Positions 10,278-35,938 of a DNA stretch of 55,892 nt are shown piece after piece. How positions within the stretch are numbered: the first letter of the stretch is position 1; each line of letters opens with the position of its first letter. The stretch is taken from contig JAADFN010000032.1 in assembly GCA_013152895.1 (NCBI GenBank), positions 1-55,892 on the forward strand, read 5' to 3'. Source of the stretch: Acidobacteriota bacterium (GTDB lineage Bacteria; Acidobacteriota; Thermoanaerobaculia; Thermoanaerobaculales; Sulfomarinibacteraceae). A model generated the notes under the pieces. That model searched no databases, was not told the DNA's origin, and saw only the letters and a list, made by a program, of their open reading frames with translations. Position numbers and translations under genes: made by a program.

Positions 10278-10293
10278 TGGCACGGTTCTTGTA
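10278..10293 (+). promoter_or_regulatory. Putative sigma54 (-24/-12) promoter
   Basis: TGGCACGGTTCTTGTA; consensus TGGCACG-N4-TTGC with one mismatch at -12. Confidence 0.65.
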
Positions 10294-10355
10294 TTTCTAA
10301 TGAACGCTGTGTGGGTGCGAGCACTGAACATCCGAAAACCGGGGAGGTGAGAACA

Positions 10356-18100: not shown

Positions 18101-18436
18101 GGCCGAGGCGGAGTATGGCGAGCCGCTGACCCCGTTGTCGATACTGTCGAAGGAGCCGAGGGATGCGTCCCACTGGGTCAAGTCCGCCCGGATGACCTGG
18201 CCACACCCGGTGGTGCAGGTGCCGGGACAATCGGGATCGTGGGCATCGACGGCGAGCGATACGGTTTCACCGGGTTTCACAACGGATGGCGTGGCCGTGA
18301 AGGTATCAATCACCGGTTCGGCCGCTGGGAGGACGGTCGCTCCGGCCACCATCAGCGCTCCGGCAAGCAGAATGCGAAGATGGGGAATAATCCCCAAATC
18401 TCCGCCCTTACCGGTGATGATTCCCCAGCATTCCAC
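15158..18436 (-). CDS. Composite surface protein: Ig-like + NHL propeller + two ASH/choice-of-anchor-D-like domains + internal IPTL-CTERM + second signal peptide + pentaheme cytochrome c
   Basis: NHL blades (GEFREPVALA, GRFHTPMGLAV), LDFGDVTVG..L.NTG repeats, IPTVGPWGLALMAMLLALAGWAALRRR, then CASCH, CQSCH, CSTCH, CRDCH, CLTCH; GTG start after GGAGGGAGGG (start uncertain). Confidence 0.85.
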   Translation of the reverse strand: MECWGIITGKGGDLGIIPHLRILLAGALMVAGATVLPAAEPVIDTFTATPSVVKPGETVSLAVDAHDPDCPGTCTTGCGQVIRADLTQWDASLGSFDSIDNGVSGSPYSASAVWRAPSTEGTVTVTITLADSGTSLCGGRQTTSAQVVIKVSATAGQEPVITSLTVDHDPVLVDGNAQLQATAVDPQGDPVTFSWSAALGTVSPGSGGAATYHAPAAPGRETVTCTASDPSGNSSSKTLDFTISNAVAETALDSGLAAPFDVGVNEWGDLAVTDAAVDGLDFVNPVTGEFLGTVRVPGVTSVAGDWLGRLVVGTRTGLLLLSATGSILSSLDPGAPLGPVTDVAIDQAGHRIWVLYGATGRVVSFDGSGTVTATFGRRGKNSGEFREPVALAWSPAGEVLVADAVLGQVLVFDPAGNFLKSISSLGNGQGELTRAAGVAVGPGNVLYVSDAFQSWIQTFNADGSFRESLGTYGDESGRFHTPMGLAVLENPPRLAIASVNSSSVQIFRLDGTEAEVPQAEASPALLDFGDVTVGQTSEPRVVKLTNTGPVPVGIYGIHWPAAFETQTTCGDGLAPGESCTATVVFDPVRSGRVAGDLSFQCSGEGSQTVALQARGIAAPAALAQLSPGSLDFGTVAVGHSSGPGTLTLSNAGGGFLDVTSVQIGGEDAAQFVLVADPCTGATIGPGESCTLEVRFSPDATGHMEATLTVESTSSGGPVTATLSGEGGQAASIPTVGPWGLALMAMLLALAGWAALRRRTLVLVFIGVFLAGTATVQAVDPPHWYFGIDCASCHTGHHAAGGSLTTSAGNVNLCQSCHSPGGLASALPINSSDRAVPGQAGTTHRFDVPVDASQWGAQMPTNPEMVKRIMNGNVVCSTCHDQHKARASNRGQLRVSPPERITSLGSTGQVTVGGTYTGAGGSSYLIEITIANAHFRYSKDGGSTWAGEADIGTGVPLDNGLTVTFSGGTFVLGERWRFSASYPFLRAPLDQGDNTSGDKFCRDCHSLWTMDYNEVEVFDWKWKSHPVGVALNANGRGYDRSVPLDGNGAVQGGGGGDGVSSDNLRLDAGGRVQCLTCHGVHYADSNTFTEDGP
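18381..18427. promoter_or_regulatory. Paired 16-bp dyad sites, pair 2
   Basis: TGGGGAATAATCCCCA (18381-18396) and CGGTGATGATTCCCCA (18412-18427), 31-bp period, near the divergent promoter region. Confidence 0.65.
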
Positions 18437-18465
18437 GATTCGTTCCCTCCCTCCAAATATACCTG

Positions 18466-18481
18466 AGCAAGAACCATTCCG
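18466..18481 (-). promoter_or_regulatory. Putative sigma54 promoter for the leftward cytochrome operon
   Basis: Minus strand CGGAATGGTTCTTGCT, GG-N10-GC with TTGC, 30 bp before the GTG start. Confidence 0.55.
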
Positions 18482-18613
18482 CCAACGGGGCTTCGCGCGG
18501 TGGCGGCGCCAAGAAGGCGCGAGATCGTCTCGCCCCTGAGAACACGCCTCGTTCATGTACCGCAAAGACCACGTGAGCTGCGATACAATCAACGCGCCGG
18601 GGAGGGTCCACGA

Positions 18614-20104
18614 GTGTCATCCGAGCCGTCCGCAACGAGCCACCGCTTCCGATTGCCATGGTCCCCGCGGACCTTGCTGATCCTGGTGCCCCTGCACCTC
18701 GTGGCCTTCCTGCTCCTGTACGTGGCCGTGCTGCACCTCGTCGTTCACGAGGTCGCCATGACGTACGAGGCGGAGAGCGGAGCGTTGCTCAACGCGGCCG
18801 TCAGCAAAATCCACTCCTCCATGGTGTGCTCGCAAGGAGGCGGCCTGCACGAACGGCTGGGGGACTTGATGGTATCTCACGAGATCCTGGGGCTTTCCGT
18901 CTTCAACGCATCGGGGCACCCCGGTTCTCCCGTCAGGCCGCCCAACCCCAGGGTATCGGCCTTTCTCGCCACTGACGCCGACGAGAATGTCCGCATCGAC
19001 AAGAACGGGGGAAAGACCACGCTGATCGCCATGGCGCGAATCCGGGCGACGAGCGAGTGCAAGCCGTGCCACATCCCGGGAGCGACCATCGGCGCGCTGA
19101 TGGTCACCCGGGATATCAGCGACGCCTTGAGTGCGACACGCCGCCGCACGGGGATCGGTCTCGCCTTGCTGATCGGGGGCTGGGCCGGACTCGTGGTCGT
19201 GGTCAACTTCGCCACGAAACGTTTCGCCACGGCGTCCGTTGACGCCCTCAAAGCCAGGGTGGCGGCAGAGCCCCCCAGTGCGGCGCCCACGACCGGCGTG
19301 CGGCTGGGCATGGACTCCCTGTCCCACGAGCTCTACCGGAGCCTGGAGAGCACGCTTCGCGAACACCGCAAGGAGCGCGCCGCCATGGAGAGCCGTTTCG
19401 AAAACGCCGAGCGGCTGGCCAGCATGGGGCAGCTCGCTGCGGGACTCGCTCACGAGATCAAGAACCCGGTGGCGGGCGTCCAGGGTGCCCTCGAGCTTCT
19501 CGTCGAGGAGTGCCACAACGACGATCGGATCGACCTCTACCAGCGCATGCTCGACGAGCTGAGGCGGGTGAACGAGACACTTCATTCACTGCTCCACTTC
19601 GCCCGTCCCCGGAAACCCCAGCGCCTCTCGACCGACATTCCGCTCCTCCTCAAAGACATCGCCGACCTTGCCCGGCCCGGGCTTTCCCGCCGGGGCATTA
19701 CCCTGAGCATCCGGGTGGATGAACGCGTGCGGACCTTCATCCTCGATCCGGGCCAGATTCGCCAGGTCGTCGTCAACTTGATCACCAACGCTGCGGACGC
19801 CATCGGTAGCTCGGGGAGCATCAAGCTCCTTGCAACGCCCTTCCCGGAAGGGAATGGAATGATCCTGGCCGTGGTGGACGACGGTCACGGCATGGACGAG
19901 GAGACTCTCAAGGCGGTGTTCGAGCCATTCTTCACCACCAAGCTGCACGGAACGGGGCTCGGACTGGCGGTCGCCCAGAAAATCGTCGAGAAGCACGGTG
20001 GGAGCATCCAGATTACCTCGGCGCCGGGAGAGGGGACGACGGTCTTCCTGCTGTTCCCCGATCCGGGCGAGGAGATTTCGTACAGCGGTGGAACGGAGGC
20101 CTGA
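18614..20104 (+). CDS. Membrane sensor histidine kinase with a periplasmic CXXCH (heme c) sensor domain
   Basis: Two TM segments flanking ECKPCH; H-box LAHEIKNP, N-box NLITNAADA, DDGHGM, FEPFFTTK, GTGLGL; GGAGGG RBS before GTG. Confidence 0.92.
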   Translation: MSSEPSATSHRFRLPWSPRTLLILVPLHLVAFLLLYVAVLHLVVHEVAMTYEAESGALLNAAVSKIHSSMVCSQGGGLHERLGDLMVSHEILGLSVFNASGHPGSPVRPPNPRVSAFLATDADENVRIDKNGGKTTLIAMARIRATSECKPCHIPGATIGALMVTRDISDALSATRRRTGIGLALLIGGWAGLVVVVNFATKRFATASVDALKARVAAEPPSAAPTTGVRLGMDSLSHELYRSLESTLREHRKERAAMESRFENAERLASMGQLAAGLAHEIKNPVAGVQGALELLVEECHNDDRIDLYQRMLDELRRVNETLHSLLHFARPRKPQRLSTDIPLLLKDIADLARPGLSRRGITLSIRVDERVRTFILDPGQIRQVVVNLITNAADAIGSSGSIKLLATPFPEGNGMILAVVDDGHGMDEETLKAVFEPFFTTKLHGTGLGLAVAQKIVEKHGGSIQITSAPGEGTTVFLLFPDPGEEISYSGGTEA

Positions 20105-20107
20105 GCC

Positions 20108-21466
20108 ATGGCATTGATTCTGCTCGTGGAGGACGAAGAGCTGCTCAGGTGGGCGCTGAAAAAGAGGCTTGCCAAGGCGGGACATGCCATCGACGAGGCG
20201 GGCTCCCTGGCCGAGGCGGCCGATCACCTCAAGCGTCGCCAGCCGGACCTGATGTTGCTCGATCTGGCACTCCCGGATGGCCATGGGCTCGATTTCTTCG
20301 AGGATCACCAGGCCGACCTGGAAAGTACCGTCACGATCATCATGACGGCCGTTGGCGAAGTGGAAGATGCCGTTCGCGCCATGAAGCTTGGCGCCTTCGA
20401 CTTCCTCTCGAAACCCGTAGATACCACCGAGCTCCTCAAGCTCATCGACCGCTCTTTGGCCCGCCGGCAGGAGTGTCTCACCGCCCAGGTCGCCCGCCGT
20501 GAGCAGGAGACCCGGACGAGCACCGATATCGTGGCACATTCGGCCGTGTTCAAGAAAGTACTGAACATCGCCTGCCAGGTCGCCCAGTCCCACGTCGACA
20601 CCATCCTGGTCCAGGGGGAGAGTGGCACCGGGAAGAACGTGGTCGCACGCTATATCCACGCGGTTTCGCAACGCCGGGACAAGCCGCTCCTCGAGATCAA
20701 CTGTGCTGCGCTTCCCGATCACCTGGTAGAGAGCGAGCTCTTCGGCCATGAACGGGGGGCATTTACCGATGCCAAGACGAGCAAGAAGGGAACCCTCGAG
20801 CTGGCCGCGACCGGCTGCCTCGTCCTCGACGAGATCAGTGAGCTGAAGCTCGAAGTCCAGGCCAAGCTCTTGCAGTTCCTGGAATCCAGGGTTTTCCGGC
20901 GTGTTGGCGGACTGCGGGAAATCCACGTGGAAACGCGCGTGATCGCCTTGACGAACCAGGACCTCCGGGAAATGGTGGCGGAGGGCAGGTTCCGGGCGGA
21001 TCTCTACTACCGGCTCGCCGTTTTCCCCATCACCGTTCCGCCCTTGCGGGAGCGCCACGAGGACGTTCTCCCGCTCGCATGGGCCTTTCTCCGGAAGTTA
21101 CAACCGGCGCTCGGACGCCGTTTCAACGGACTGACACGGGAGGCCGAAAACCTGTTGCTGGGGTACTCGTGGCCCGGCAACGTCCGCGAGCTGCGCAACG
21201 TGGTGGAGCGGGCAATGATTCTCGAAAAGGGCCCAGAGATCACCCCTTCGTCCCTGATCCTCGATCCGGAAACCGGGGCGCCCGCGCCTTCGGGCAGAAC
21301 CGAACCCCTGGCGGGGATCGTCCCCCTCGAAACCGCCGAACGAGAGCTCGTCCGGAGGGCCATGCGGGCGACGGGAGGCAACCAGACACGCGCGGCCGAG
21401 CTCCTGGGAATCACGCGGGATCAGCTCCGCTACCGGCTCAAGCGCTTTCCCGAGGCCAGCGAGTAA
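20108..21466 (+). CDS. NtrC-family sigma54-dependent response regulator
   Basis: REC (VEDE, LLDLALPDG, SKP), GESGTGK, ESELFGHERGAFTDA, FRADLYYRL, WPGNVRELRN, Fis-type HTH (GNQTRAAELLGI). Confidence 0.96.
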   Translation: MALILLVEDEELLRWALKKRLAKAGHAIDEAGSLAEAADHLKRRQPDLMLLDLALPDGHGLDFFEDHQADLESTVTIIMTAVGEVEDAVRAMKLGAFDFLSKPVDTTELLKLIDRSLARRQECLTAQVARREQETRTSTDIVAHSAVFKKVLNIACQVAQSHVDTILVQGESGTGKNVVARYIHAVSQRRDKPLLEINCAALPDHLVESELFGHERGAFTDAKTSKKGTLELAATGCLVLDEISELKLEVQAKLLQFLESRVFRRVGGLREIHVETRVIALTNQDLREMVAEGRFRADLYYRLAVFPITVPPLRERHEDVLPLAWAFLRKLQPALGRRFNGLTREAENLLLGYSWPGNVRELRNVVERAMILEKGPEITPSSLILDPETGAPAPSGRTEPLAGIVPLETAERELVRRAMRATGGNQTRAAELLGITRDQLRYRLKRFPEASE

Positions 21467-21472: not shown

Positions 21473-21488
21473 TGGCACGATCCTTGCT
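21473..21488 (+). promoter_or_regulatory. Sigma54 promoter
   Basis: TGGCACGATCCTTGCT, perfect -24/-12 consensus in the gap right after the regulator stop. Confidence 0.85.
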
Positions 21489-21511: not shown

Positions 21512-21898
21512 ATGCGGATCGCGATTCTCGACTGCTCGCCGTTGACGGCGTGGACCATTGTACGGCTGTTGCCTCCGAATGTGGATTACGACGTGCTGCC
21601 CTCCTTCGAAGAGGCACATCGCGTGCTCTGCGAGGCCCCGCCGGACGCGGTCCTCATCGGTCTGACCGCCGGCCGGTTGCCGTGGGAGGACCTCCTCGAG
21701 CTCTGCAGGTCCAACCATCCGGAGATTCCCTACCTTCTCTACTATTCCCTCAACGCTCTCCCGCCGGGAGAGCCCGTGCCGCAGGCGGTGGCCAACGCCG
21801 CCGTTTCGCCCGTGGAGATCGCGGAGCTGAGGCTGGCCGTTCGGGGCCTTCTCGATCGCGCCAGGTCCCAGGATCGTGCCACACGATCGCCAGGGTAG
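21512..21898 (+). CDS. Stand-alone degenerate (pseudo-)receiver domain protein
   Basis: MRIAILD..SFEEAHRVL....PDAVLIGL..HPEIPYLL follows the REC pattern, with Gly at the phospho-Asp position. Confidence 0.6.
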   Translation: MRIAILDCSPLTAWTIVRLLPPNVDYDVLPSFEEAHRVLCEAPPDAVLIGLTAGRLPWEDLLELCRSNHPEIPYLLYYSLNALPPGEPVPQAVANAAVSPVEIAELRLAVRGLLDRARSQDRATRSPG

Positions 21899-21929: not shown

Positions 21930-23681
21930 GTGTTGAAGCAGATTGCCCGAATCGGTTCCATAATGCTGGTTGCCGTTGGCGTCTCCGTCCCCGTTGCGAT
22001 TGCGGGCCACCATCCGCAGCTCGTCTCGGTTCAAGCCTCGAAGTGCACAAACTGCCACGGCGACCTCCTGCGGGGCATGGTCTCCGTTCACCCTCCCGCC
22101 AAGGAGGACTGCACGAACTGTCACGACGTGCAGATTACTGCCACGAGCACGACGATCGGGCTCAACGAGAAGGAACCTGCCCTCTGCCTGGAGTGCCACG
22201 ACGGCCTCCAAAAGGCCGTCGACGGAAAGCTGGCGAGCCCCCATCCGCCGGTCGGCGACTCGTGCCTCAACTGCCATTCGCCCCACGCAAGCGCCAACAA
22301 ACACCTCCTCAACGAGGCCATTCCCGCCCTGTGCCTCGCCTGCCACGATCTCGATGAGCTTCAACCGAAGCACGGAGGGCAGCTCACAGAAGACGTCAAT
22401 TGTCTCGCCTGCCACTCCCCCCACGGCAGCGATGCGCCCAACATGTTGCGCGCCAAGCACCAGCATCCACCCTTCGGTGCGGGAGAGTGCGACGCCTGCC
22501 ACCGCAAACCGTTCGCGGGCCGCGTCAGGCTGCGCGCGTTCGGCGCCAAGGTGTGCACCGCATGCCACGGAGAAATCATCAATCCCAAGGCCGTCAGTAT
22601 CCATCCCGCCCTCGACCGCCGGCGGAACCGGAAGGTCTGCGTCGCCTGCCACGACCCGCACATGAGCGACAATCCTTCGCTCCTGATCGTCACCGGCCCC
22701 GACCTTTGCAAGAAGTGCCATCCAGGTATCGTCAAGGCTGCTCGCGCCGACACGGGTCATCCGGCCGCTTCCGAGGATTGCACCAACTGCCACAAGCCTC
22801 ACGACGCGTCCCAGCCCAACCTCCTGACCGAAGCCACGCCGGCTCTCTGCCTGGAGTGCCACGATGCCGATGACGCCCAGCTTCGCAAGGCGCACCTCGG
22901 CGCGGATATGACCACCCTGCCGTGTGTCAGCTGCCACACGCCCCACGGTGACGGCAACAAGTACCTCCTGGCGAAGACCGTCCATCCGCCCGTGCTCGAT
23001 GGCTGCGACACCTGTCACGAGGGGGCGTACAACAAGCTGATGGACGACGGGGGCTCCGCCCTCTGCCTGGAGTGCCACGACGATATCGGCGAAGAGGCCA
23101 AGAAGGCCAAGTTCCCCCACCCGGCGATGGAAATGGCCGAGTGCACCGATTGCCACAACCCCCACGCTAGCGCCCAGGACCACCTGGTGAAGGAACCGTC
23201 CGGCAAGGAGTGCCTGGCGTGCCACGACGACATCGGGCCGGGCAAGAACGAGGTGGCCCACGGCGTGATCACGCTGATCGGGTGCCGGGTCTGTCACGAG
23301 CCCCACGGGGGTTCCAGGCCGCACCTCCTGCGCATGGATCCGGACGCGCTGTGTCTCAGCTGCCATGACGCCAAGCACTCGCCACCCCCGAATTCCACGA
23401 AGCCGGTCAAGGTGCTCGGTCAGTTCGAGATACCCGCCGAGATCGCCCGGGTCATGGCATCTCTCAGACTCAGCCCCGACGGAACCCGGGACCACCCCGT
23501 GACCAACCACCGTGTGCTGGGAACGCCGAGCAAGAAGGAGCTCAAGCGCAACGATGCACACTTCAAGGGAGAGCTCCACTGTCTCACCTGCCACAATCCC
23601 CACAAGGGGGCGTCGCGCCTGCTGCTCCGCTGGGGAGCCGCCAACTCGTACCAGGCCTGTGCCCACTGTCATCCCAAGTGA
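21930..23681 (+). CDS. Periplasmic high-molecular-weight cytochrome c with 21 CXXCH motifs (doubled-CXXCH repeats)
   Basis: Signal peptide; 21 CXXCH by manual count in ~583 aa; recurring HxP..CxxCHxPHxS...LL....LCxxCH; GGAGG RBS. Confidence 0.93.
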   Translation: MLKQIARIGSIMLVAVGVSVPVAIAGHHPQLVSVQASKCTNCHGDLLRGMVSVHPPAKEDCTNCHDVQITATSTTIGLNEKEPALCLECHDGLQKAVDGKLASPHPPVGDSCLNCHSPHASANKHLLNEAIPALCLACHDLDELQPKHGGQLTEDVNCLACHSPHGSDAPNMLRAKHQHPPFGAGECDACHRKPFAGRVRLRAFGAKVCTACHGEIINPKAVSIHPALDRRRNRKVCVACHDPHMSDNPSLLIVTGPDLCKKCHPGIVKAARADTGHPAASEDCTNCHKPHDASQPNLLTEATPALCLECHDADDAQLRKAHLGADMTTLPCVSCHTPHGDGNKYLLAKTVHPPVLDGCDTCHEGAYNKLMDDGGSALCLECHDDIGEEAKKAKFPHPAMEMAECTDCHNPHASAQDHLVKEPSGKECLACHDDIGPGKNEVAHGVITLIGCRVCHEPHGGSRPHLLRMDPDALCLSCHDAKHSPPPNSTKPVKVLGQFEIPAEIARVMASLRLSPDGTRDHPVTNHRVLGTPSKKELKRNDAHFKGELHCLTCHNPHKGASRLLLRWGAANSYQACAHCHPK

Positions 23682-23699: not shown

Positions 23700-24759
23700 A
23701 TGAACCGACTCATCTTCCCTATTCTCGCCCTGGCGCTGGCCGCCGGGACCATCGGCTGTACCACCATTCCCAAGGCGGAGCCCACGCAAACCAAGAGCCG
23801 TGAGCAGAAATACGCCGCGTACGTGTGGCCCCCGCCCCCCGACCAGCCCCGTATCCGGCTCGTGGACATTCTGCACAGCCGCCTCGACGTGGAACCCAGC
23901 TCGCACTTCGAGAGAGTGCTTCTCGGTTCGAGCCCCCACAGCCCGTGGGACTTCCTCAAGAAGCCCTTCGGGGTCGCCATCGACAGCCACGACCGTATCC
24001 TGGTGACCGACCCCGGGACTGGCGCCCTGGTGCGTTTCGACCGGGCCGGCCGCAAGATGGACGTCATCGGCGTCAAGGGACCGGTCCGCCTCAAGGTCCC
24101 GCTCGGCGTCTCCATCGGACCCGACGGAACCATCTACGTGGCGGATGCAGGCCTGACCAAGGTCGTGGCCTTTTCCCCGAAGGGCAAGCTGGTGAAGGTT
24201 TACGGCCACGAGGGTGAGCTGCTCAACCCCACGGATGCGGTCGTATCCCCGGATGGGACCAAGCTCTACGTGACCGACTCCAAGGCCCACAAGGTCGTGG
24301 TATTCAACGTGGCCAACGGCAAGATCGTCATGAGCTTCGGTTCCCGGGGCACCGAGCCGGGCCAGTTCAACTTTCCGACGGCCCTGGCCTTCTCGCCCGA
24401 CGGCGATCTCTTCGTCGTGGACCAGATGAACTCCCGGGTCCAGGTGTTTACCGGTGATGGCGATGTCCTGGAGACTTTCGGCGCCCTGGGCGTCGGTTTC
24501 GGAAACTTCGTCCGGCCCAAGGCCGTGGCCGTCAACCACGACGGCCTGGTCTTCGTCACCGACGCCGCGTTTGGCAACGTACAGATTTTCGATTCCGACC
24601 TGCGCCTGTTGACCTTCGTCGGTGAAAACGGCCACGGGCCGGGTCAGTTCCAGCTCCCCGCAGGCGTGGCGGTCCACGGGGAACCAGTTCGCCGTCGTGG
24701 ATCAGCTCAACAGGCGGGTTCAGCTCTTCCGCTTCATCAAGCCGAAGGGTGGGAAATAA
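23700..24759 (+). CDS. NHL-repeat beta-propeller lipoprotein, with an apparent 1-bp frameshift at GGGG 24678-24681
   Basis: Lipobox TIGC, WPPPPDQPRI, GQFNFPTALA, GNFVRPKAVAV; removing one G restores HGNQFAVVDQLNRRVQLFRFIKPKGGK-stop (TAA 24757-24759). Confidence 0.85.
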
Positions 24760-24796
24760 TCCCCACCAATCCGCGGGATGGTGGGCGTTTTCCCCA
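24750..24796. promoter_or_regulatory. Paired 16-bp dyad sites, pair 3
   Basis: TGGGAAATAATCCCCA (24750-24765) and GTGGGCGTTTTCCCCA (24781-24796), 31-bp period, upstream of the sigma54 promoter at 25170. Confidence 0.65.
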
Positions 24797-25169
24797 GGCC
24801 GGTTTTCCGGGTTCACACCGCAAGATGAGGAACGTGAGCCATGGACGGCGGCCCCGGGCGGGTGCAACGGACGCGAAACACGCACCAGGAACGCCTCCAG
24901 CCCGCGTCTCTCACGAACGTTCGTTGCGAGGCCATGGAGGCACCGATCAGCATGACGTTCCGACCAAGGTGGCGAAAAGCCCGCTCGTGGCACGTAATCA
25001 GCGCCACCGCCGCGAGAAACGCGGCTATGGCGGGCACATTCGCGGTCGCAGCAGGAAGCCGGCGAGCTTTGTGGGCCGGGGCCGTGCAAACAGCTCCTGC
25101 GCCGCGCTACCCGGGCGGTTGCGGCTCAGGCCCCCCTTCGGCATCGCCGGCCCCCCGATTCTGCGTGGC

Positions 25170-25185
25170 TGGCACGGAGGTTGCA
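25170..25185 (+). promoter_or_regulatory. Sigma54 promoter of the OmcE-like gene
   Basis: TGGCACGGAGGTTGCA, perfect consensus, 67 bp before ATG 25253. Confidence 0.85.
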
Positions 25186-25252
25186 AACTGCAAAGGTACG
25201 CGCTTCTCGTCGGTGCGGGAGGCGGGATATTAACCAGAGAGGGAGGATCATT

Positions 25253-25921
25253 ATGAAGAAAGTCCTAATTATCTGCCTGGCGGTGCTCGTCACCGCTGTC
25301 ATGGCCAACGCCCAAACGGTGGTTGGCACACCCCACGACCTGAGCGCAACGGGGCCGGGCGCCACAACCAACGTCAGCCGGGTCTGCGTCTTCTGCCACA
25401 CGCCTCACCAGGCCAGCGCGGCGGCCGGCCAGTACCCCCTCTGGAACCACACGCTGTCTTCAACCGCCAGCTACGGCGTGTACTCCAGTCCCACGCTCAA
25501 TGCCAGCCCGACCGACATCGGCGGGGCGACGGCAGGATCCGCCGCCGTGTCCAACCTGTGCATGTCCTGTCACGACGGCACGGTCTCCGTGGCCAGCATG
25601 TACAATCCCCCCAACGAGGTGAGCTCTGTCACGCTTACCGCCGGTGGTAACGTGACGTCGGCCGGCCTCATCACAGGCACGCCGGATCTGGGGACAGATC
25701 TCAGCGACGACCACCCGATCAACTTCACCTATGACACGGCTCTGGCCACCGCTGATGGCGGCCTCAACGATCCGGCCACGGATACCGCTGTGGCGGACCT
25801 TCTCATCGGTGGCGAGGTCCAGTGCTCCTCGTGCCACAATCCCCATGACAACACCTACGAGCCCTTCCTGGTGAAGGACAACACGGGCAGCGCACTCTGT
25901 ACGACCTGTCATATCAAGTAG
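25253..25921 (+). CDS. OmcE-like tetraheme cytochrome c, candidate major filament subunit
   Basis: Signal peptide (..MANA), PHDLS, CVFCHTPH, PLWNH, YSSPTL, SNLCMSCHDG, LGTDLSDDHP, QCSSCHNPHDN, PFL, GSALCTTCHIK; 222 aa; GGAGG RBS. Confidence 0.9.
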   Translation: MKKVLIICLAVLVTAVMANAQTVVGTPHDLSATGPGATTNVSRVCVFCHTPHQASAAAGQYPLWNHTLSSTASYGVYSSPTLNASPTDIGGATAGSAAVSNLCMSCHDGTVSVASMYNPPNEVSSVTLTAGGNVTSAGLITGTPDLGTDLSDDHPINFTYDTALATADGGLNDPATDTAVADLLIGGEVQCSSCHNPHDNTYEPFLVKDNTGSALCTTCHIK

Positions 25922-25946
25922 GCTTGTGACCTGAACGAACGATGGA

Positions 25947-25982
25947 CCGCGGGGGCCGGAAAACCGGTCCCCGCGGGTTTGT
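25947..25982 (+). terminator. Strong stem-loop after the OmcE-like gene (partial terminator or mRNA-stabilising hairpin)
   Basis: CCGCGGGGGCCGG-AAAA-CCGGTCCCCGCGG (13-bp stem with one G-U pair) followed by a weak GTTTGT tail. Confidence 0.7.
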
Positions 25983-26059
25983 AGCGGGCAGACACCATTC
26001 CATGAGAAAATGAGTACGGATTGGATGTCTGCATCGCTCAGCAGCACGAAGGGAACAAC

Positions 26060-27049
26060 ATGGTGCGCCACCTTACCGTCCGGCTGGTTGGAGTGATCAT
26101 GGCGGCGGGGCTCATGGCCTCGCCGGCTGCGGGTTCTCAGCCGAAGATCGCCGCCCGGGTGGGCGACAGGATCATCACCCGCGGCGAGCTCGACCGGGAG
26201 GTCCAGCGGGCTATCAACACCGGTTACTTCCACAGGCGGCTCCCGGAAAACGTGCTCCGGGCGCTGCGCCTCAAGCAGCTCGAGAAGCTCATTCACCGCG
26301 ACCTGGACATCCTGGGCGGCTACGACCGGGGCCTCAAGCTGCCGCTGGCCGATGCCAAGGGACGGCGCGCCGCCATGGAGATTCAGCTCGGCAAGAAGAC
26401 GTACGAACGCTCGTTGAAGATCAACGGGTGGACGCGGGCGGACCACGTGCGCATTCTCGCGGAAACACTCATGGGGCAGGAGGCGTACCGCAGATTCGTC
26501 TTGGAGAAAGCCAAGGTTCCGGAAGGTGCCGTGCACCGGGCCTATGAGGCCAACCCCGGACGGTGGAAGATGCCTCCGTCTCTCCACATCTTCCACATCC
26601 TGCTCAAGGTTCCCCCGTCGGCCGGTGGTGCGGTGTGGGCGAAGCGTGAGGCCGAGGCCCGAAAAATCAAGGCCCAGGTCCTGGCGGGAACGCCTTTTAC
26701 CGACCTTGCGGCGCGCCGCTCGGAGGGAATGTACCGGATCAAGGGCGGCGACCTGGGGTGGGTTCACAAGGGCCGTCTCGAGCCCGAGCTCGAGAAAGCG
26801 GCATGGAAGGCGAAGGTGGGTTCCGTGGTGGGCCCCATACGGACCTTGGAGGGGGTACACCTGTTGCTGGTCACGGCGCGCCGGCCAGCGCGGCAGCTCA
26901 CATATAAAGAGGCAGCGCCGATTCTCCGCAAGGAGCTCGAGAAAAAAGCCCTGGCGAATGCCGAGAAGCGCTGGTACAGCGAGGTGCGGAAGCGGCATCC
27001 CGTGGTCATCCTCGATCCGGCTTTGCGTCAGAGCGACGGGGGACGGTAG
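26060..27049 (+). CDS. Exported PpiC/parvulin-type peptidyl-prolyl isomerase chaperone (SurA/PrsA-like)
   Basis: Signal peptide, AARVGDRIITRGEL, HILLKV, FTDLAARRSE, GGDLGWV, PIRTLEGVHLL. Confidence 0.9.
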   Translation: MVRHLTVRLVGVIMAAGLMASPAAGSQPKIAARVGDRIITRGELDREVQRAINTGYFHRRLPENVLRALRLKQLEKLIHRDLDILGGYDRGLKLPLADAKGRRAAMEIQLGKKTYERSLKINGWTRADHVRILAETLMGQEAYRRFVLEKAKVPEGAVHRAYEANPGRWKMPPSLHIFHILLKVPPSAGGAVWAKREAEARKIKAQVLAGTPFTDLAARRSEGMYRIKGGDLGWVHKGRLEPELEKAAWKAKVGSVVGPIRTLEGVHLLLVTARRPARQLTYKEAAPILRKELEKKALANAEKRWYSEVRKRHPVVILDPALRQSDGGR

Positions 27050-27055: not shown

Positions 27056-28834
27056 GTGCGCAGGTGGGGTGCGACGCTGCTCCTGCTGGGGGCAACAGCA
27101 CTCGTCCCGCGAGCAGCTTACGCCCAGCTCTTTGGTCAGTGGTCCTGGAACGCCCTGCTGAGCTTGGAGCAACGTTCCTTCCTGACCGAGACGAAAGGGA
27201 GCGCCTTGACCGATTACAAGGAACGCGGCTTCCGCCTGGATTTGGGCATGAATGGTTTTATCATCCATCCGGCCATCGCCCGCTTCCGCCTCGGCCTCGA
27301 CACCTTGGTTTCCAACTATACGGGAACGGCGGCCCCGGACAACAAACGCTGGGGACTGCACGCGCAGCTCACCCTTCTGCCGTACAGCCGGTACCCCACC
27401 TATTTCCACCTGACCCGCACCCGGTACAACTACACGCTGAATTCCGAGGATCCACTGGCAACGACCGGCCTTGCCGATACGACGAGGAACTGGGGGGCGA
27501 GGATCCGCTTTCGCGGCGGGCTCCTCCGCGGCCTGGCGGCCAGCACTGACCGAACGGACACGAGCTTTGTCGACCCCGCGGTCCGCAACGAGGTCTTTCT
27601 CCGCCAGTACCTGGACTGGGCCGGTGCCTCCGGGCGGATCAACCACCACTACCGCCTCGAACGGCAGTACCGCCGCTACGGCCGGACTCGCTATACCACC
27701 GACGACTACACCCTGACGGTGGACGAGCACGGCCTCCTCTCGGACCGCTGGCGCTGGGACCTCAGCGGTGTCGGCTTTCACCGCAGCTTCGATTACGAGA
27801 ACACCAACAACACGGTGGACACGGCCCGGCTTCGGAATCGCATCGTCTACACGACACATCGTGATGACCTCATAGATCTCTCGTATACCGGTGGTTTTAG
27901 CCATGCCAAGGCCGGGCGCACCGCGACGACCAATGCAGTGACCGCTCGCTACGTCTGGAACGCCGCGAGCGGCCTGCAGGTGACTCCCACGGTGAGCTAC
28001 TCCGTGCAACATGCGGGTGACACAACTGTCAACGCACCGGCGACCGGAGTCAGCCTGTCGTGGAGCCACATCGCGGACCGGTACGACCTCAGTCTCAACG
28101 GGGGCTTAAGCGGCGCGTGGATCGACACGTCCTGGAATGACGGCTCGCAGAAAACAACCGTGATGGCCTGGACCGCGGGTTCCACGGTCGGAACCGGATC
28201 AGAAGATCACGTGCGGGCCGAGCTGGACCTGTCTCTGGCCCACAACGAGCTGCGCACCGTTGGCGACGCCCTGGTGGAGCTCCCCGATCTCGGCACGGAG
28301 TACGAGCGCATCGGCCTCCAGAACAGCTTCCGGAGCCGCCTGACCCTGCGCCGCCGCATTCGCCGATGGCATCTCAGCACCTACCTGGAGCACCGGCATC
28401 GTGAGCAGGAGAGCGCGCGGATCAATCCGGTCCGTGTGAGCTCCAACATCCTGGACGTCACTCTCAGCGGACCCGGCATCGGGTTCACCCTCGACACCGG
28501 CAAGACCCAGGGGCGTTCTGGATTTCAGCAGGATGTGAGCTTCTTCGCTGCGAATATTCACTGGATGCCGCTCCGGTACCTGACGCTGAGATCCACGTAC
28601 CTGACCAACGTGAGCAACGTCTCCCAAGGGCCCGACATCCATCTCCAGCGGATCGAGGGGACCGCCCAGCTCCACTTCGGGCGCTACACCCTCGATGCCA
28701 AGTTGTGGGACCAGACGGAGACGATCGAAGGGAGCCTGCAGCGAACGCGGGGAGTGCTCCTGACCTTCTCCGCCCGCTTCGCCGGATGGCTCCCCTTCGT
28801 CAGCGCTCCACAGCGGCGGGGGATCATCCGATGA
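27056..28834 (+). CDS. Predicted outer-membrane beta-barrel protein (candidate porin or secretion channel)
   Basis: Signal peptide (..AYA); long run of amphipathic alternating strands rich in Y/W/R/T; position within the cytochrome operon. Confidence 0.7.
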   Translation: MRRWGATLLLLGATALVPRAAYAQLFGQWSWNALLSLEQRSFLTETKGSALTDYKERGFRLDLGMNGFIIHPAIARFRLGLDTLVSNYTGTAAPDNKRWGLHAQLTLLPYSRYPTYFHLTRTRYNYTLNSEDPLATTGLADTTRNWGARIRFRGGLLRGLAASTDRTDTSFVDPAVRNEVFLRQYLDWAGASGRINHHYRLERQYRRYGRTRYTTDDYTLTVDEHGLLSDRWRWDLSGVGFHRSFDYENTNNTVDTARLRNRIVYTTHRDDLIDLSYTGGFSHAKAGRTATTNAVTARYVWNAASGLQVTPTVSYSVQHAGDTTVNAPATGVSLSWSHIADRYDLSLNGGLSGAWIDTSWNDGSQKTTVMAWTAGSTVGTGSEDHVRAELDLSLAHNELRTVGDALVELPDLGTEYERIGLQNSFRSRLTLRRRIRRWHLSTYLEHRHREQESARINPVRVSSNILDVTLSGPGIGFTLDTGKTQGRSGFQQDVSFFAANIHWMPLRYLTLRSTYLTNVSNVSQGPDIHLQRIEGTAQLHFGRYTLDAKLWDQTETIEGSLQRTRGVLLTFSARFAGWLPFVSAPQRRGIIR

Positions 28835-29817
28835 GGAGATTGGCGTGGCTCCTGGTGGCTGCCGGGGCGCTGGCGGGCGCCTGCACCGTGGTCCATCACG
28901 CACCATCGGCCCACGAGGGGGCCGGGGTCCGGTTGTGGCCGGCGGAGCACCCGCGTATCGAGCTCGTCCGGGTTCTCGGTGTCCGGGGTGACCTGCGCGG
29001 TGGCGGGCTCCTGCGTTGGCTCCGGGGCGGACGCAAGGATCCACTCTTCGCCAGGCCTTACGGCGTGGCCTGGGATGGCGAGGCGCTCCTCGTGGCTGAT
29101 CCCGGGGCTGCCCGAGTCCTGAGGATCGCGCCGGGCGGCGGCATCCGCCAGAGCAAGGAGGGCCTCTTCGTGGCGCCAGTGGCCCTGGCCGCCTGCGAGG
29201 GAGGCATCGTCGTCACCGATCCGGCGGCCGGAAGCGTCGCCCTCCTCGACCGTGACCTCCGGCTTTCCCGCTGGCTGGCTCGCGATCTCCAGCGCCCCAC
29301 GGGCGTGGCGTGCGTGGGTCCCCATGTCTACGTGCTGGAGACCGGCGCCCACCGGCTGGTGGAGATCCGGGATCAAGCCGTGGTTCCCGTGCTCGGAGGG
29401 CGGGGAGATGGACCCGGACAGTTCAACTTCCCCACGGCCCTGACGGCCGACGGGTCCACCCTCTGGGTGGGTGATACGCTTAATTTCCGGGTCGTGAGGG
29501 TGGATCCGGCGAGCCGCCAGGTCCTGGAGACCTTCGGAACCCTGGGTGATTCCCCGGGAGAGATGCCCCGGCTCAAGGGGCTGGCGGTCGATCGGGAGGG
29601 ACGCCTGTGGATCAGTGACGGTCTTCTTGACCAGATCGCCCTGTACACCCGGGGAGGAACGTACCTCATGTCGATCGGACGACACGGAAGCGCTCCGGGT
29701 GAGCTGAGCTTCCCCGCCGGGCTCGCCACCGGGCCACACGGACGGGTCGTGGTGGCCGATTCCCTCAACCGGAGGCTCCAGGTTTTCGCGCCCGTCCCAA
29801 CGGAGGCAATGCCATGA
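28831..29817 (+). CDS. NHL-repeat beta-propeller lipoprotein (paralog of 23700-24759)
   Basis: Lipobox LAGAC, LWPAEHPRIEL, GQFNFPTAL, GELSFPAGLA, VADSLNRRLQVF; ATGA overlap. Confidence 0.88.
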   Translation: MRRLAWLLVAAGALAGACTVVHHAPSAHEGAGVRLWPAEHPRIELVRVLGVRGDLRGGGLLRWLRGGRKDPLFARPYGVAWDGEALLVADPGAARVLRIAPGGGIRQSKEGLFVAPVALAACEGGIVVTDPAAGSVALLDRDLRLSRWLARDLQRPTGVACVGPHVYVLETGAHRLVEIRDQAVVPVLGGRGDGPGQFNFPTALTADGSTLWVGDTLNFRVVRVDPASRQVLETFGTLGDSPGEMPRLKGLAVDREGRLWISDGLLDQIALYTRGGTYLMSIGRHGSAPGELSFPAGLATGPHGRVVVADSLNRRLQVFAPVPTEAMP

Positions 29818-30512
29818 ACGGCCCACAACGATCGTCCCGATTTCTGGCGGCCGGCCTGGTTGTGTGCCTGTGGACCGTGCTGCCCAGCCCTGCGGTGGCC
29901 CAGCAGCGGGTCGCAGACACGCTCCACAACCTCTCGGTCAGTGGCCCCGGCGCGATTCATTCGGTCAGCGAGACGCAAGTGTGCAAGTTCTGCCACATCC
30001 CGCACAACGCCGTCGTCCCCCATCCCCTCTGGGGGCACACCCTTTCCTCGGCCGACTACCGCGTACCCGACGTGATTTCGCCCTCGGGAGGAAAGCTGCC
30101 AGCGCCCCAACCCGACGGCTCCTCCCGGCTCTGCCTGTCCTGCCACGACGGTACGGTGGCGCTCGGCGACCTGGGCGGGAAACGGCCCATCCCCATGCTG
30201 GGGAGCCAGCGCCTGACCCCCGGACGGCGCGGTTTCATCGGCACGGATCTCAGCGGAAGCCATCCCATCTCTTTCGTCGTTCGTGACGCTACCGGTGCCC
30301 GTGGCGCGGCAACTGAACGGGACATGGGGCTCCGTCCCCTTTCCTCCATCACGGCAGATCCGGACGTCCGGCTGGACGCCATGGGAAAGATGCAGTGCAC
30401 CACCTGCCACGATCCCCATAGCGATCAGTATTACAAAAAGGGCCAGGTCCCCCACTTCTGGGTCAAGCCGACGGTCCAGGAGGTCTGTATCACATGCCAC
30501 GCCCTCCGGTAA
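29814..30512 (+). CDS. Second OmcE-like tetraheme cytochrome c
   Basis: Signal peptide, LHNLS, CKFCHIPH, PLWGH, SRLCLSCHDG, IGTDLSGSHP, QCTTCHDPH, CITCH. Confidence 0.87.
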   Translation: MNGPQRSSRFLAAGLVVCLWTVLPSPAVAQQRVADTLHNLSVSGPGAIHSVSETQVCKFCHIPHNAVVPHPLWGHTLSSADYRVPDVISPSGGKLPAPQPDGSSRLCLSCHDGTVALGDLGGKRPIPMLGSQRLTPGRRGFIGTDLSGSHPISFVVRDATGARGAATERDMGLRPLSSITADPDVRLDAMGKMQCTTCHDPHSDQYYKKGQVPHFWVKPTVQEVCITCHALR

Positions 30513-31714
30513 TCGCACCGTTTCTCGCGTTTCTCCTGGGTGTCGCGGCTCTCGCTGCCGGCCAGACGCCCCACATGGACCCCAGCCGCGTGCCCGGGTC
30601 GTGCATGGCCTGCCACATGGGTCACGGGGTCAGCGGCTCACCCATGCTCTCCGAGCCGGTTGACGCCGTCTGTCTGCGCTGCCACGGAACCCTCAGCGAT
30701 CGCAACCGCATGATCATGGAAGGATTGCTGGCCGGTGACGCCACGCCCCTGTCTTTGAGCTCAGTCCTCGCCCAGCCGTACACCCACCCGCTCGATGCCT
30801 CCGCCACCTCGGCCGAAACTGCTTCCACGGCCACCTGTACCTCGTGTCACGCACCACACCGTGGGTTCGAGGGCGCCGGGAACCAGCCGGCCGGCATACC
30901 GAAACGCTCCCCGAAAAACCCGAACCGCTTCGAGTATCAGCTCTGTGAGGGGTGCCATGGCAGTGCAGGCGCCACCACCACGAGCGTCTCCGATATCAGC
31001 CGGCTCTTTTACCCTGGTAACGCTTCCTACCACCCGGTAGAGGCGCCAGCCAACGACAGCTCCCCCTCCGTCATCGCATCACTGAGGGGCAAGCAGATCA
31101 GCTGTACGGATTGCCACGGCAACAGCAACCCGGCCGGGCCCCGGGGTCCTCACGGGTCCGCCGTACAGTACATCCTACGCCTCAATTATGTGACAACGGA
31201 TGGACCGGAAAGCCCGAACGCCTACGCCCTGTGCTACGCCTGCCACGATCGCAAGAAGGTGCTCGACAGTACGGCATTCCCGGAGCACGGCGAGCACATC
31301 GTGAAGATCGGGGCCTCCTGCGCCACCTGCCACAATCCGCACGGCTCCGTGATCAACCGAGCCCTGATCCGTTTTGGCGAGGAAACCATCATCTCGGGAG
31401 TGGCACCGTCACCCTCGACGGGCCGGCTCGCCTTCGTGTCGACGGGCCCAGGGTCCGGGGCGTGCTACCTGCTCTGCCACGGGAAGGACCACGGTCCGGC
31501 GACGTACGGATCGGTGAGCCTTCAGCGCCTCCAAAGAAGGATGGCGCCCGGGCCGTCCCGGGTTCCAGCAGAGACGACGCTCCCTTCACGAAGGGTCCTG
31601 AGGGGTTCGGGCGTTTCTCCACGCAAGCACAACCCCCAGGATGATACCGAGCCGCACGGCCGACCCCCAGTCCACGCTCCCGCTCCCGTGCGCCACCAGG
31701 CTCCACAGGAATGA
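30494..31714 (+). CDS. Multiheme cytochrome c (7 CXXCH + CX3CH)
   Basis: Signal peptide; CMACH, CLRCH, CTSCH, CEGCH, CTDCH, CYACH, CATCH, CYLLCH. Confidence 0.88.
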   Translation: MPRPPVIAPFLAFLLGVAALAAGQTPHMDPSRVPGSCMACHMGHGVSGSPMLSEPVDAVCLRCHGTLSDRNRMIMEGLLAGDATPLSLSSVLAQPYTHPLDASATSAETASTATCTSCHAPHRGFEGAGNQPAGIPKRSPKNPNRFEYQLCEGCHGSAGATTTSVSDISRLFYPGNASYHPVEAPANDSSPSVIASLRGKQISCTDCHGNSNPAGPRGPHGSAVQYILRLNYVTTDGPESPNAYALCYACHDRKKVLDSTAFPEHGEHIVKIGASCATCHNPHGSVINRALIRFGEETIISGVAPSPSTGRLAFVSTGPGSGACYLLCHGKDHGPATYGSVSLQRLQRRMAPGPSRVPAETTLPSRRVLRGSGVSPRKHNPQDDTEPHGRPPVHAPAPVRHQAPQE

Positions 31715-31786
31715 AACCGCCGCCGTCACCACGAAAGTCAATGAAAAAAAGAGTGCAAACTCCCGGAACGATCTAAGGGCGTTCAT
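31586..31786 (-). CDS. Small two-helix membrane protein
   Basis: GGAGG RBS + ATG; FALFFSLTFVVTAAVSFLWSLV and AVRLGIILGVVLAW hydrophobic segments; overlaps the low-complexity tail of the cytochrome gene. Confidence 0.6.
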   Translation of the reverse strand: MNALRSFREFALFFSLTFVVTAAVSFLWSLVAHGSGSVDWGSAVRLGIILGVVLAWRNARTPQDPS

Positions 31787-31905
31787 GGTGTGTCCTCCTC
31801 GATCCCCTTTCTTCACAGAGGGATGCTATTCCAAGGTACGCACCGCCGCGGAAAAGATTCCGACCTGACAACGGTGTTCCCAGTGTTCCCAGGTATCCTA
31901 CCAGT

Positions 31906-32152: not shown

Positions 32153-32890
32153 TCACGGCGATCCCTCGAGCGTCCGCTGGAGCCTTGCAAACAGCGGGGT
32201 CAACCGGTCGGGGTCGCCCGTCGCGGCGAGGATGACCCGGTAAAGCACCCCGACGTCCGTGTGTCCGAACGAGGTCGCGGCAGCCCACCGGGGTTTCGTG
32301 TCCGCGATCAGGCGGTCCAGGGCGTGACCCGCCTCCGGATCGAAGCCTTCGGGGTCGACGAGCTGGCCGAGACGCCGGGATACCGGCAGCGTCAGCCAGA
32401 GATGCGTGCACCGCTCCGCATCCCGGTGGGAGAACGCACGTTCGAGACGGTGGGCCAGCCGCTGGAGGCTGGGACCGACCGCGATCAGCCGCGGCTCACC
32501 GTCCCAGCGTTGACGAACGACGAGGTTGTACACGTCATCGGGACGGCGCAGCGTTTCGGCGACGCGGACCAACGTGTCGATGAGATCCGTCCGGACCCGG
32601 GCCTCGTCCGCCAACGGCGCGTCGATCTCAAGATCCAGGCGCCACGACTCATCTCCGGCGATCGCGCCGGCTTCGCGCCGCGACGCACCGTGGCCGGACG
32701 CCCCCGCGAGCTGCCAGCGAACATGGCAACCCCGGCCACGACGCGAGGCACGCACGGTGCGGACGAGCGCAGCCCAGGGGGCGAGAAGCACGAGGAACAC
32801 GGCGCCGGCCGCGGCCCGCAGGCATCCCCCCCGCGGTGGTTTCCCCGCTGCATCACACCGTTCCGGTTGGCGCAGCGCGCCTTCAGTCAT
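32153..32890 (-). CDS. Hypothetical membrane-anchored protein, last gene of the ccm operon
   Basis: ATG overlaps the ccmF stop; one N-terminal hydrophobic helix (AVFLVLLAPWAALV). Confidence 0.55.
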   Translation of the reverse strand: MTEGALRQPERCDAAGKPPRGGCLRAAAGAVFLVLLAPWAALVRTVRASRRGRGCHVRWQLAGASGHGASRREAGAIAGDESWRLDLEIDAPLADEARVRTDLIDTLVRVAETLRRPDDVYNLVVRQRWDGEPRLIAVGPSLQRLAHRLERAFSHRDAERCTHLWLTLPVSRRLGQLVDPEGFDPEAGHALDRLIADTKPRWAAATSFGHTDVGVLYRVILAATGDPDRLTPLFARLQRTLEGSP

Positions 32891-35426: not shown

Positions 35427-35527
35427 GAACCCCCCTCACATGCGGAATACCGCTCATCGGTTCAAATGATCACAACTCCGAATGTCATCAGCAACCAGGG
35501 ATATCGGGACTCGCCGAGGCCGCACTG

Positions 35528-35938
35528 TCATGAACCGCTCGTTGCACCCGGTTTTTCGAGCCCCTGGTACTTGGAAGGACACTTGACAAGCATCTGCGTG
35601 GCGTAGAACGCGCCGTTGTGGTACCTGCCGATGACGACGATTTCTTTCGCGTCCTCGAAATTCCCGGGTTTGACGCCCTTGTACAGAACGCGCATCTTCT
35701 CGCCGTGCTTGTTCATGATCATAAAACTGAGCTCGTTGGCGCCCTTGACAAAGCTCGAAGAGCCCCGGACCAGCTCGCCCGCGACCTGGACCTGCCGATG
35801 TCCCGACATCGCGTCGCCGAAGGACACGTACGGCGTCAGGTTTGACTTGAACGATGTCGCTCCGAACGCGATGAAGGCAATCAGGAGGACACCGCCGATG
35901 ACGTACCAGAGCTGCCGCTGTCTCTTCGGATCCTTCAC
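35528..35938 (-). CDS. ccmE: Heme chaperone CcmE, cysteine (CxxxY) type
   Basis: N-terminal TM, VLYKGVKPGNF, F.ATQMLVKCPSKY. Confidence 0.93.
   Translation of the reverse strand: MKDPKRQRQLWYVIGGVLLIAFIAFGATSFKSNLTPYVSFGDAMSGHRQVQVAGELVRGSSSFVKGANELSFMIMNKHGEKMRVLYKGVKPGNFEDAKEIVVIGRYHNGAFYATQMLVKCPSKYQGLEKPGATSGS

Follow-up and report, generated by a model that had tools for sequence, protein, structure and literature searches.

The question raised by this locus is which of its OmcE-like cytochromes is produced in bulk. OmcE, a protein with four haems, builds conductive filaments on the outside of Geobacter cells. The DNA analysed here, referred to as the window, comprises 55,892 nucleotides and represents an entire contig (JAADFN010000032.1, assembly GCA_013152895.1) of a 2.99-Mb metagenome-assembled genome of an uncultured Acidobacteriota bacterium belonging to the Thermoanaerobaculia. 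It contains a cytochrome gene cluster with the genes for OmcE1 (25253-25921) and OmcE2 (29814-30512), and a third paralog, OmcE3 (10356-11084), all on the + strand. Orthologous loci of relatives are labelled L005 onward, and the other contigs of the genome carry C-numbers. A previous inspection of the DNA by eye, here called the sequence-only reading, had proposed OmcE1 as the bulk filament protein on the strength of its expression signals. We consider it likely, with a probability of roughly 60%, that OmcE1 is the main extracellular subunit of an OmcE/Uet-type system, most likely the repeat unit of a haem filament, and that more of it is produced than of the machinery encoded in the same cluster. 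This reading is supported by the closer relationship of OmcE1 than of OmcE2 to the solved OmcE subunits, by a promoter element found in 8/8 close relatives, by a hairpin behind the gene in 23/55 loci and by read-through of this hairpin in 5 relatives.

The omcE1 gene encodes a secreted protein of 222 residues with four CXXCH haem motifs. Its product matches the OmcE of G. sulfurreducens (7tfs_A) with an E value of 1e-34 over residues 6-222 and chain 9yuq_N with an E value of 3e-32 over residues 1-222. The latter chain comes from the OmcE filament bundle of Desulfuromonas soudanensis, PDB 9YUQ (Petersen et al., bioRxiv 10.1101/2025.10.22.684050; mBio 2026, PMC13712944). These matches cover the full length, so that the label "OmcE-like" was correct, and by homology OmcE1 is clearly a tetrahaem cytochrome of the OmcE family. 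A profile of 40 OmcE1 orthologs scored 207 and 173 bits against the two solved chains, and the OmcE2 profile scored 130 and 92 bits. The four CXXCH motifs and the histidines His28, His52, His154 and His198 are invariant in 22/22 orthologs as well as in 40/40 aligned orthologs, and the four histidines align with histidines in both solved chains. A ninth histidine, within WNH or WGH, is found in OmcE1 and in 17/22 of the orthologs; both solved OmcE chains have an arginine there. Mature OmcE1 has a pI of 4.49, 3 lysines plus arginines, 17 aspartates plus glutamates, and a combined Ser, Thr, Ala and Gly content of 44%, whereas OmcE2 has a pI of 8.48 and 20 lysines plus arginines. The contrast drawn by the sequence-only reading, between an acidic, Ser/Thr/Ala-rich protein and a basic paralog, is therefore accurate. 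It extends to the relatives: the orthologs of OmcE1 are acidic and contain very little lysine and arginine (1-5 of these residues in 16/22), and their number in the OmcE2 orthologs is 9-23.

An exact sigma-54 -24/-12 element, TGGCACGGAGGTTGCA, is located at 25170-25185 on the + strand, 83 nt 5′ of the ATG of omcE1. The GG (25171-25172) and GC (25183-25184) dinucleotides lie ten bases apart within the pattern TGGCAC-N5-TTGCW, to which only 7 sites in the 2.99-Mb genome correspond exactly, 2 of them within the cluster. The sigma factor gene rpoN is present (Sigma54_DBD on contig C172), and a histidine kinase gene and an NtrC-type sigma-54 activator gene adjoin the cluster at 18500-21466. An element of the same type is found 69-83 nt upstream of the start codon in 8/8 aligned close relatives. 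The sequence-only reading was right that OmcE1 has a perfect sigma-54 promoter of its own. In the wider family, a relaxed sigma-54 pattern precedes the OmcE1-type gene at 13/55 loci, compared with 6/550 control windows. A GGAGG ribosome-binding site, also pointed out previously, can be read at 25242-25246, 6 nt before the ATG at 25253. Between the promoter and this site, the predicted 5′ leader contains a stem-loop (25195-25231; -18.1 kcal/mol, z -2.4). A hairpin of 7-10 bp near the predicted transcript start is present in 7/7 folded OmcE1 leaders (window, L005, L007-L011), with z between -0.4 and -2.4 for each. These hairpins differ in sequence, are followed by an A-rich open stretch containing the ribosome site, and gave no consensus pairs when the seven leaders were analysed with RNAalifold. 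The leader hairpin may act as a 5′ stabiliser.

The omcE1 gene is followed on the + strand by a GC-rich hairpin at 25947-25976, which consists of 13 pairs, including one G-U pair, an AAAA loop and a subsequent GUUUGU. The 28-nt core folds with -26.6 kcal/mol, and the 111-nt region around it has a z of -4.0, with 0/200 shuffles folding equally well. Among 9 nt of the tail, GGTTTGTAG, 4 are T, and the hairpin is absent from the consensus terminator scan; the earlier description of a 13-bp stem-loop with a weak U-tail ahead of the chaperone and barrel genes is thus confirmed. The orthologous hairpins in L008, L011, L014, L029 and L031 bear 5-8 T in the tail. A hairpin of -15 kcal/mol or lower was detected within 110 nt after the stop codon of the small OmcE gene at 23/55 loci and in 7/275 control windows; with at least 4 T following, the counts were 16/55 and 1/275. 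The strict shape filter used for these counts overlooks some bulged hairpins that are visible in relatives. Because the stems differ between loci, it is the structure of the hairpin and not its sequence that is kept. We propose that the element serves as a leaky terminator or as a 3′ stabiliser.

OmcE1 lies in a conserved gene context. According to Pfam, tblastn and AlphaFold2, the cluster on the + strand consists of a kinase, an NtrC-type activator, a sigma-54 site, a small protein, a 21-haem cytochrome, the propeller protein NHL1, a gap with the second sigma-54 site, OmcE1, the hairpin, an isomerase, a barrel, a second propeller protein NHL2, OmcE2 and a heptahaem cytochrome. The isomerase (26060-27049) is a secreted prolyl isomerase of the PpiC type whose N-terminal part resembles SurA (Pfam Rotamase, SurA_N_3). 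The gene at 27056-28834 encodes a protein of 592 residues without a Pfam family, for which AlphaFold2 predicts a signal peptide and a large beta-barrel of the outer membrane with 28 strands (pLDDT 87); a protein-atlas look-up returned weak porin leads only. NHL2 (28705-29817; Pfam NHL) is a beta-propeller protein whose listed reading frame overlaps the end of the barrel gene, and its true start probably lies after 28705. The heptahaem gene (30494-31714) encodes 7 CXXCH motifs. The gene order is identical in L005, L007-L011 and L014-L016, and in L025 up to the contig end (tblastn map), with the isomerase gene after omcE1 in L005 and L007-L011 (tblastn). A looser version of the cluster is found across many phyla.

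A tetrahaem OmcE, two beta-propellers, a large barrel and further multihaem cytochromes are also shared with the omcE cluster of Desulfuromonadia (7TFS, 9YUQ), where this set is described as the "smallest cluster" and where neighbouring large beta-barrel and beta-propeller genes serve as the criterion for OmcE-type nanowire clusters (Petersen et al., PMC13712944). Both kinds of neighbour are present at the OmcE1 locus. The cluster in the window differs in the additional isomerase gene and in its host phylum, which is outside the five phyla listed by these authors. The second relative is the uet cluster of Tenderiales, named for undecahaem electron transfer (bioRxiv 10.1101/2022.05.06.490989) and described as encoding the tetrahaem UetA, the isomerase UetB, the barrel UetC, three trihaem proteins, a cupredoxin, two NHL proteins and the undecahaem UetJ. 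The order UetA, UetB, UetC, NHL, UetJ recurs in the window, where OmcE1 corresponds to UetA, the isomerase and the barrel are UetB-like and UetC-like, and UetJ is represented by two genes, one for 4 and one for 7 haems, that share 19 nt. Unlike in Tenderiales, the trihaem c7 genes UetD, E and G and the cupredoxin gene UetF are absent between the barrel and the NHL gene (27056-29817, Pfam). The cluster is a member of the known omcE/uet kind. What appears to be new against the searchable literature are the Acidobacteriota carriers, the promoters and terminators of such clusters, the link between uet and omcE, and the OmcE-like N-terminus of UetJ: the words "promoter" and "sigma" have 0 occurrences in Petersen et al. 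(PMC13712944), OmcE has 0 occurrences in the Tenderiales preprint, and a search of this literature found no paper that names both UetJ and OmcE.

The kinship with uet raises the question of whether OmcE1 polymerises. The Tenderiales authors read the same proteins mainly as a porin-cytochrome conduit through the barrel (bioRxiv 10.1101/2022.05.06.490989). OmcE1 would then be an extracellular tetrahaem cap, monomeric or short, on a conduit of the Uet type, and its own promoter would reflect a differing stoichiometry or regulatory input. The gene order, equal to that of uetA, uetB, uetC, NHL and uetJ, favours such a cap, and so does the fact that no filament is known from Acidobacteriota; the string "Acidobacteri" is absent from both versions of the OmcE bundle paper (bioRxiv 10.1101/2025.10.22.684050; PMC13712944). 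However, both solved homologs of OmcE1 are polymers, and all eight of the histidines aligned with haem ligands are kept in OmcE1, one of which, according to a review, serves the haem of the adjacent subunit in OmcE. The Tenderiales authors themselves allow for conductive polymers made from one of the proteins. We regard a cap as rather unlikely, and a filament subunit as the better description of OmcE1.

In the reading proposed here, the hairpin would divide one transcription unit into two levels of expression. In L005, L008, L009, L010 and L011 the ribosome site and the start codon of the isomerase gene lie within approximately 20 nt of the hairpin. This leaves no room for a promoter, so that the downstream genes in these five genomes are read through the hairpin, which is thus a leaky terminator or a processing or stability element with an equal effect on the ratio. 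For the window, read-through is deduced from these relatives because the spacer between the hairpin and the isomerase gene is 84 nt here. A length of this order, which is also seen in L007 (approximately 90 nt), together with the very stable stem, could mean that the hairpin is a complete terminator, that OmcE1 is transcribed alone, and that the isomerase, the barrel, NHL2 and the split UetJ are expressed from their own promoter within the 84 nt. The close spacing in the five relatives argues against this, as do the weak U-tail and the result of the consensus scans, which detected no match to the consensus of sigma-54 or sigma-70 on the + strand from 25977 to 26059. We consider complete termination improbable, and partial read-through of the hairpin the more suitable explanation.

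The second OmcE-like protein of the cluster belongs to a different component. OmcE2 shares 35% identity with OmcE1 and matches 7tfs with an E value of 4e-19. Its start codon at 29814 shares bases with the NHL2 stop codon in the sequence ATGA, and the 19-nt overlap of its gene with the heptahaem gene includes its last haem motif. Four haem motifs and nine histidines, among them the counterparts of the eight ligand histidines of OmcE1, are invariant in 22/22 orthologs. In many other phyla, OmcE2 and the heptahaem protein form one reading frame of approximately 500-660 residues with 10-12 CXXCH motifs, mostly 11. Such fused frames number 17 among L005-L084, and with an alignment of sixteen of them, at least 413 stretches of public genomes were found to contain relatives. 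Among 79 loci fetched with this alignment (L085-L163), 75 have the heptahaem module immediately behind the OmcE-like match; in 65 of these 75 the end of an NHL gene lies no more than 400 nt upstream, and 53 have a separate small OmcE-like gene. The split form is common to the Thermoanaerobaculia and to loci of the Zixibacteria and Krumholzibacteria type, and is therefore old and not an assembly error. When 70 OmcE-like modules were placed in a tree, the rows of the split OmcE2 type grouped into a single clade (100/93), separate from all small first-position OmcE rows, and the fused N-terminal modules formed a poorly supported grade near the small OmcE1-type rows. The assignment to UetJ rests on gene order and fusion, since the tree by itself does not prove it. 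By these two lines, OmcE2 and the heptahaem gene together represent the 11-haem cytochrome UetJ in split form, with OmcE2 as the predicted N-terminal and the heptahaem protein as the predicted C-terminal module. The translational coupling noted for OmcE2 in the sequence-only reading stands, as the ATGA overlap confirms; its role as a minor pilus-type subunit needs revision, although "adaptor" may still hold for it as part of an 11-haem protein.

Some peculiarities were observed around the UetJ-type genes. The heptahaem protein of the window extends approximately 80 residues beyond the end of its relatives with a tail rich in proline and arginine, so that the listed end of the gene is tentative (31470-31800). 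A short reading frame on the opposite strand with a strong GAGGAGG site begins near 31787 and overlaps this tail. A locus from Desulfuromonadales (L061:1141-7743) carries genes for an NHL protein, a small OmcE, two trihaem proteins, a barrel, a further NHL protein and a fused 11-haem UetJ-type cytochrome. Judged by its gene content, this layout would bridge the Geobacter-type omcE and the Tenderiales uet layouts. The locus L161 from Oryzomonas was set aside as a related but different cluster, with no small OmcE gene within the stretch examined.

Modelling of the paralogs as a hetero-oligomer had been suggested as a check, and it indicates head-to-tail docking of OmcE1 and OmcE2. The model of both mature proteins with 4 haems scored 0.79, compared with 0.00 for the best of three controls, although this may reflect likeness only, because OmcE homopolymers are among the solved structures and OmcE2 is paralogous to the true partner. 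A mark of 0.79 is reached by 116/157 solved complexes and by 2/215 mismatched pairs. At least 94% of the contacts are common to the runs, and the partner has a pLDDT of at least 87. In the model, the C-terminal side of OmcE1 (residues 143-154, 194 and 210-222) contacts the N-terminal side of OmcE2 (residues 32-72), in the geometry expected for a filament, and the C-terminal side of OmcE2 is left free for the heptahaem module. The model supports, rather than establishes, the binding of OmcE2 to OmcE1. That OmcE2 is a co-polymerising subunit, alternating with OmcE1 or forming a polymer itself, is highly improbable: it keeps the eight ligand histidines and the four haem motifs and was modelled head-to-tail with OmcE1, but its module is fused in many phyla to the seven-haem module (the 17 frames of L005-L084 and 75/79 loci of L085-L163), whose attachment to the C-terminal side would block head-to-tail growth there, and it is more distant than OmcE1 from the solved filament subunits and is without the acidic make-up, low in lysine and arginine, of OmcE1.

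OmcE2 may have a different role. Petersen et al. (PMC13712944) describe an ideal filament anchor as OmcE-like with four haems and nine histidines, and state that the OmcE operons encode no such anchor or tip candidate. Here, in contrast, and in most of the related loci, the 11-haem cytochrome begins with an OmcE-like module. The count of nine histidines is weak evidence for this role, because the ninth is also present in OmcE1 of this genome. We tentatively suggest that the cluster may encode the anchor of an OmcE filament, in which the N-terminal module of UetJ, OmcE2, would dock head-to-tail on the C-terminal face of the last OmcE1 and wire the filament to the haems that cross the barrel or are located at it. 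The seven-haem module, to which OmcE2 is translationally coupled here and with which it is fused in most phyla, would occupy its far side, and one end of the filament would thereby be capped.

Several observations weigh against OmcE1 as the bulk filament subunit, in addition to those named for the conduit and to the paralogy of the docking partners. The U-tail of the hairpin is weak in the window, and the 84 nt behind it might hold a separate promoter. By the strict test, 32/55 loci have no hairpin, and by the pattern used 42/55 have no sigma-54 site, which makes both signals traits of a part of the family. A GGAGG motif is also found at OmcE2 (29801-29805), at the heptahaem gene (30480-30484) and at OmcE3 (10343-10347), and OmcE3 has a sigma-54-like site too and is apparently a stand-alone transcription unit. 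The codon adaptation index of omcE1, calculated against 21 genes of the ribosomal cluster (20 ribosomal proteins and rpoA), is 0.726 and corresponds to the 53rd percentile, though this index says little here because the ribosomal protein genes (0.63-0.77) are not distinct from the genome median of 0.72. Of the features that had been taken to single out OmcE1, the promoter is thus exact, and the ribosome site and the possession of an own promoter are not unique among the paralogs. The idea of a bulk filament protein followed by an attenuating hairpin is plausible in view of the homology and of the recurrence of promoter and hairpin, and it is less clear-cut where it relied on the uniqueness of these signals.

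We propose that the neighbouring kinase and NtrC-type activator would switch on the sigma-54 promoter of omcE1, and that most transcripts would end, or be stabilised, at the hairpin. A fraction would continue into the isomerase, barrel, NHL2 and split UetJ genes, with the result that OmcE1 would exceed the machinery. The split UetJ may bind at one end of the polymer of OmcE1, which would thereby be connected to seven further haems. A low read-through expression of the split UetJ next to a high expression of OmcE1 could provide approximately one anchor per filament.

The region upstream of the promoter was less clear than had been described. As assembled, a reading frame of 518 amino acids (23700-25256) covers the entire supposedly non-coding gap and overlaps the start of omcE1. 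It begins with the beta-propeller protein NHL1 (23700-24759 on the + strand; Pfam NHL, three-frame reading and ortholog alignment), the frame of which changes at approximately 24679-24683, and beyond this point it encodes an Arg/Gly-rich sequence up to 25256. The NHL1 ortholog of L007 aligns in frame 2 to 24683 and then in frame 3 over 24679-24756. The change amounts to one base in a run of G (24670-24690) and is either real or an assembly error. Only if the frameshift is accepted does NHL1 end at 24759 and leave a gap of 493 bp (24760-25252), as the sequence-only reading had it with approximately 490 bp; as assembled, the gap is an open reading frame. The enhancer pair postulated in this gap could not be substantiated. 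A repeat finder and a palindrome scan across eight orthologous upstream regions returned dozens of GC-rich palindromes and no shared enhancer site near the promoter, and none of the many short palindromes near the promoter in the GC-rich gap is conserved in relatives. The only element kept upstream lies over 370 nt away from the promoter and consists of a palindrome, situated at the stop codon of NHL1, and an adjacent short block (24749-24798 on the + strand). The palindrome, aligned in 8 loci, has the consensus TGGGGAATAGTCCCCA across the stop codon, and a block ..GCG(T/A)TTTC.. follows approximately 20 nt later, read by eye in the window as ..GCGTTTTCCCC; both are kept in L005, L007-L011 and L014, in which the spacer otherwise diverges. 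The region folds no better than shuffles (z -0.9), so that the palindrome is possibly a protein-binding site.

The expression layout has parallels in other filament systems. In chaperone-usher pilus operons such as pap and fim, the gene of the major subunit comes first and is followed by a stem-loop and by assembly genes expressed at a lower level. The likeness to the cluster, which the sequence-only reading had drawn, would hold for this expression logic and does not hold for the machinery. According to Pfam there is neither a PapD-like chaperone nor an usher family; the candidate chaperone is the PpiC/SurA-type isomerase, and the subunits are haem proteins and not Ig-like pilins. The barrel was considered as an usher and rejected, since its Foldseek match to FimD is generic (rank 20, TM 0.28), as are those to TonB-dependent receptors and LptD (TM approximately 0.3). 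The type IV pilin gene pilA is transcribed from a sigma-54 promoter under the control of PilS-PilR. By analogy, both pilA and omcE1 would be filament subunit genes with a sigma-54 promoter and a neighbouring two-component system, with subunit families and assembly machineries that are unrelated. In the osc (OmcS companion) operon of G. sulfurreducens (Shen et al. 2025, as cited in PMC13194489), a filament subunit is encoded in one operon together with its paralogs OmcT and OscC and with proposed folding and secretion proteins. The cluster in the window shares this arrangement and differs in the subunit, as the hexahaem OmcS has no sequence likeness to OmcE.

Upstream of NHL1, the cluster begins with a sensor histidine kinase (18500-20104; Pfam HisKA and HATPase_c), which has homologs at the equivalent place in relatives, and an NtrC-type sigma-54 activator with receiver, AAA+ and HTH_8 domains (20108-21466; Pfam Sigma54_activat, E 5.6e-63). 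Within the cluster, the first of the exact sigma-54 -24/-12 elements, TGGCACGATCCTTGCT, was located by pattern match at 21473-21488. Exact sites are also found on another contig at C96:7628 and C96:3684, and the 16-mer at C96:7628 is identical to the one at 21473. The element is followed by the gene of a small protein (21512-21898), which has no Pfam family, is receiver-like by eye only and has homologs in relatives, and by a cytochrome gene (21930-23681; Pfam Paired_CXXCH_1) with 21 CXXCH motifs counted from the corrected start at 21930. All of these features are on the + strand.

OmcE3 has five CXXCH motifs. Its GGAGG is accompanied by a sigma-54-like site with one mismatch, TGGCACGGTTCTTGTA, at 10278-10293, and its gene ends against a convergent gene for a protein with GAF and HD domains; it appears to stand alone as a transcription unit. 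OmcE3 fits the "five-haem OmcE-like" group proposed in Petersen et al. (PMC13712944) as a possible new nanowire family. On the short contig L017 (909-2482), a gene of the OmcE1 type stands in tandem with a second one behind it that shares 69% identity with OmcE3, so that the two are neighbours there. A truncated three-haem relative is present on another contig of the genome. Further multihaem proteins flank the cluster. On the - strand, two huge reading frames of 962 and 1144 codons at 12333-18592 both give CXXCH-type Pfam matches, the longer one also Ig-like, PKD, six-bladed propeller and IPTL-CTERM matches; they may encode further surface electron-transfer proteins. Genes for cytochrome c maturation (CcmF-like with a ResB-like end, CcmC-like, CcmB) come immediately after the cluster at 32883-37480, likewise on the - strand, and converge on it.

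The secretion, the start, the end and the cell connection of cytochrome nanowires are treated as an open question in the 2026 literature (PMC13712944). If the proposed roles are correct, the promoter-terminator layout would predict the bulk cytochrome of a cluster and could guide the choice of nanowire subunits in uncultured phyla, and the OmcE2/UetJ protein would be a concrete candidate, encoded within the cluster, for the anchor or base of the filament. The findings also speak for a single family that comprises both the omcE clusters known from metal reducers and the uet clusters known from electron-uptake bacteria, and they add the Thermoanaerobaculia to the likely users of OmcE-type wires.

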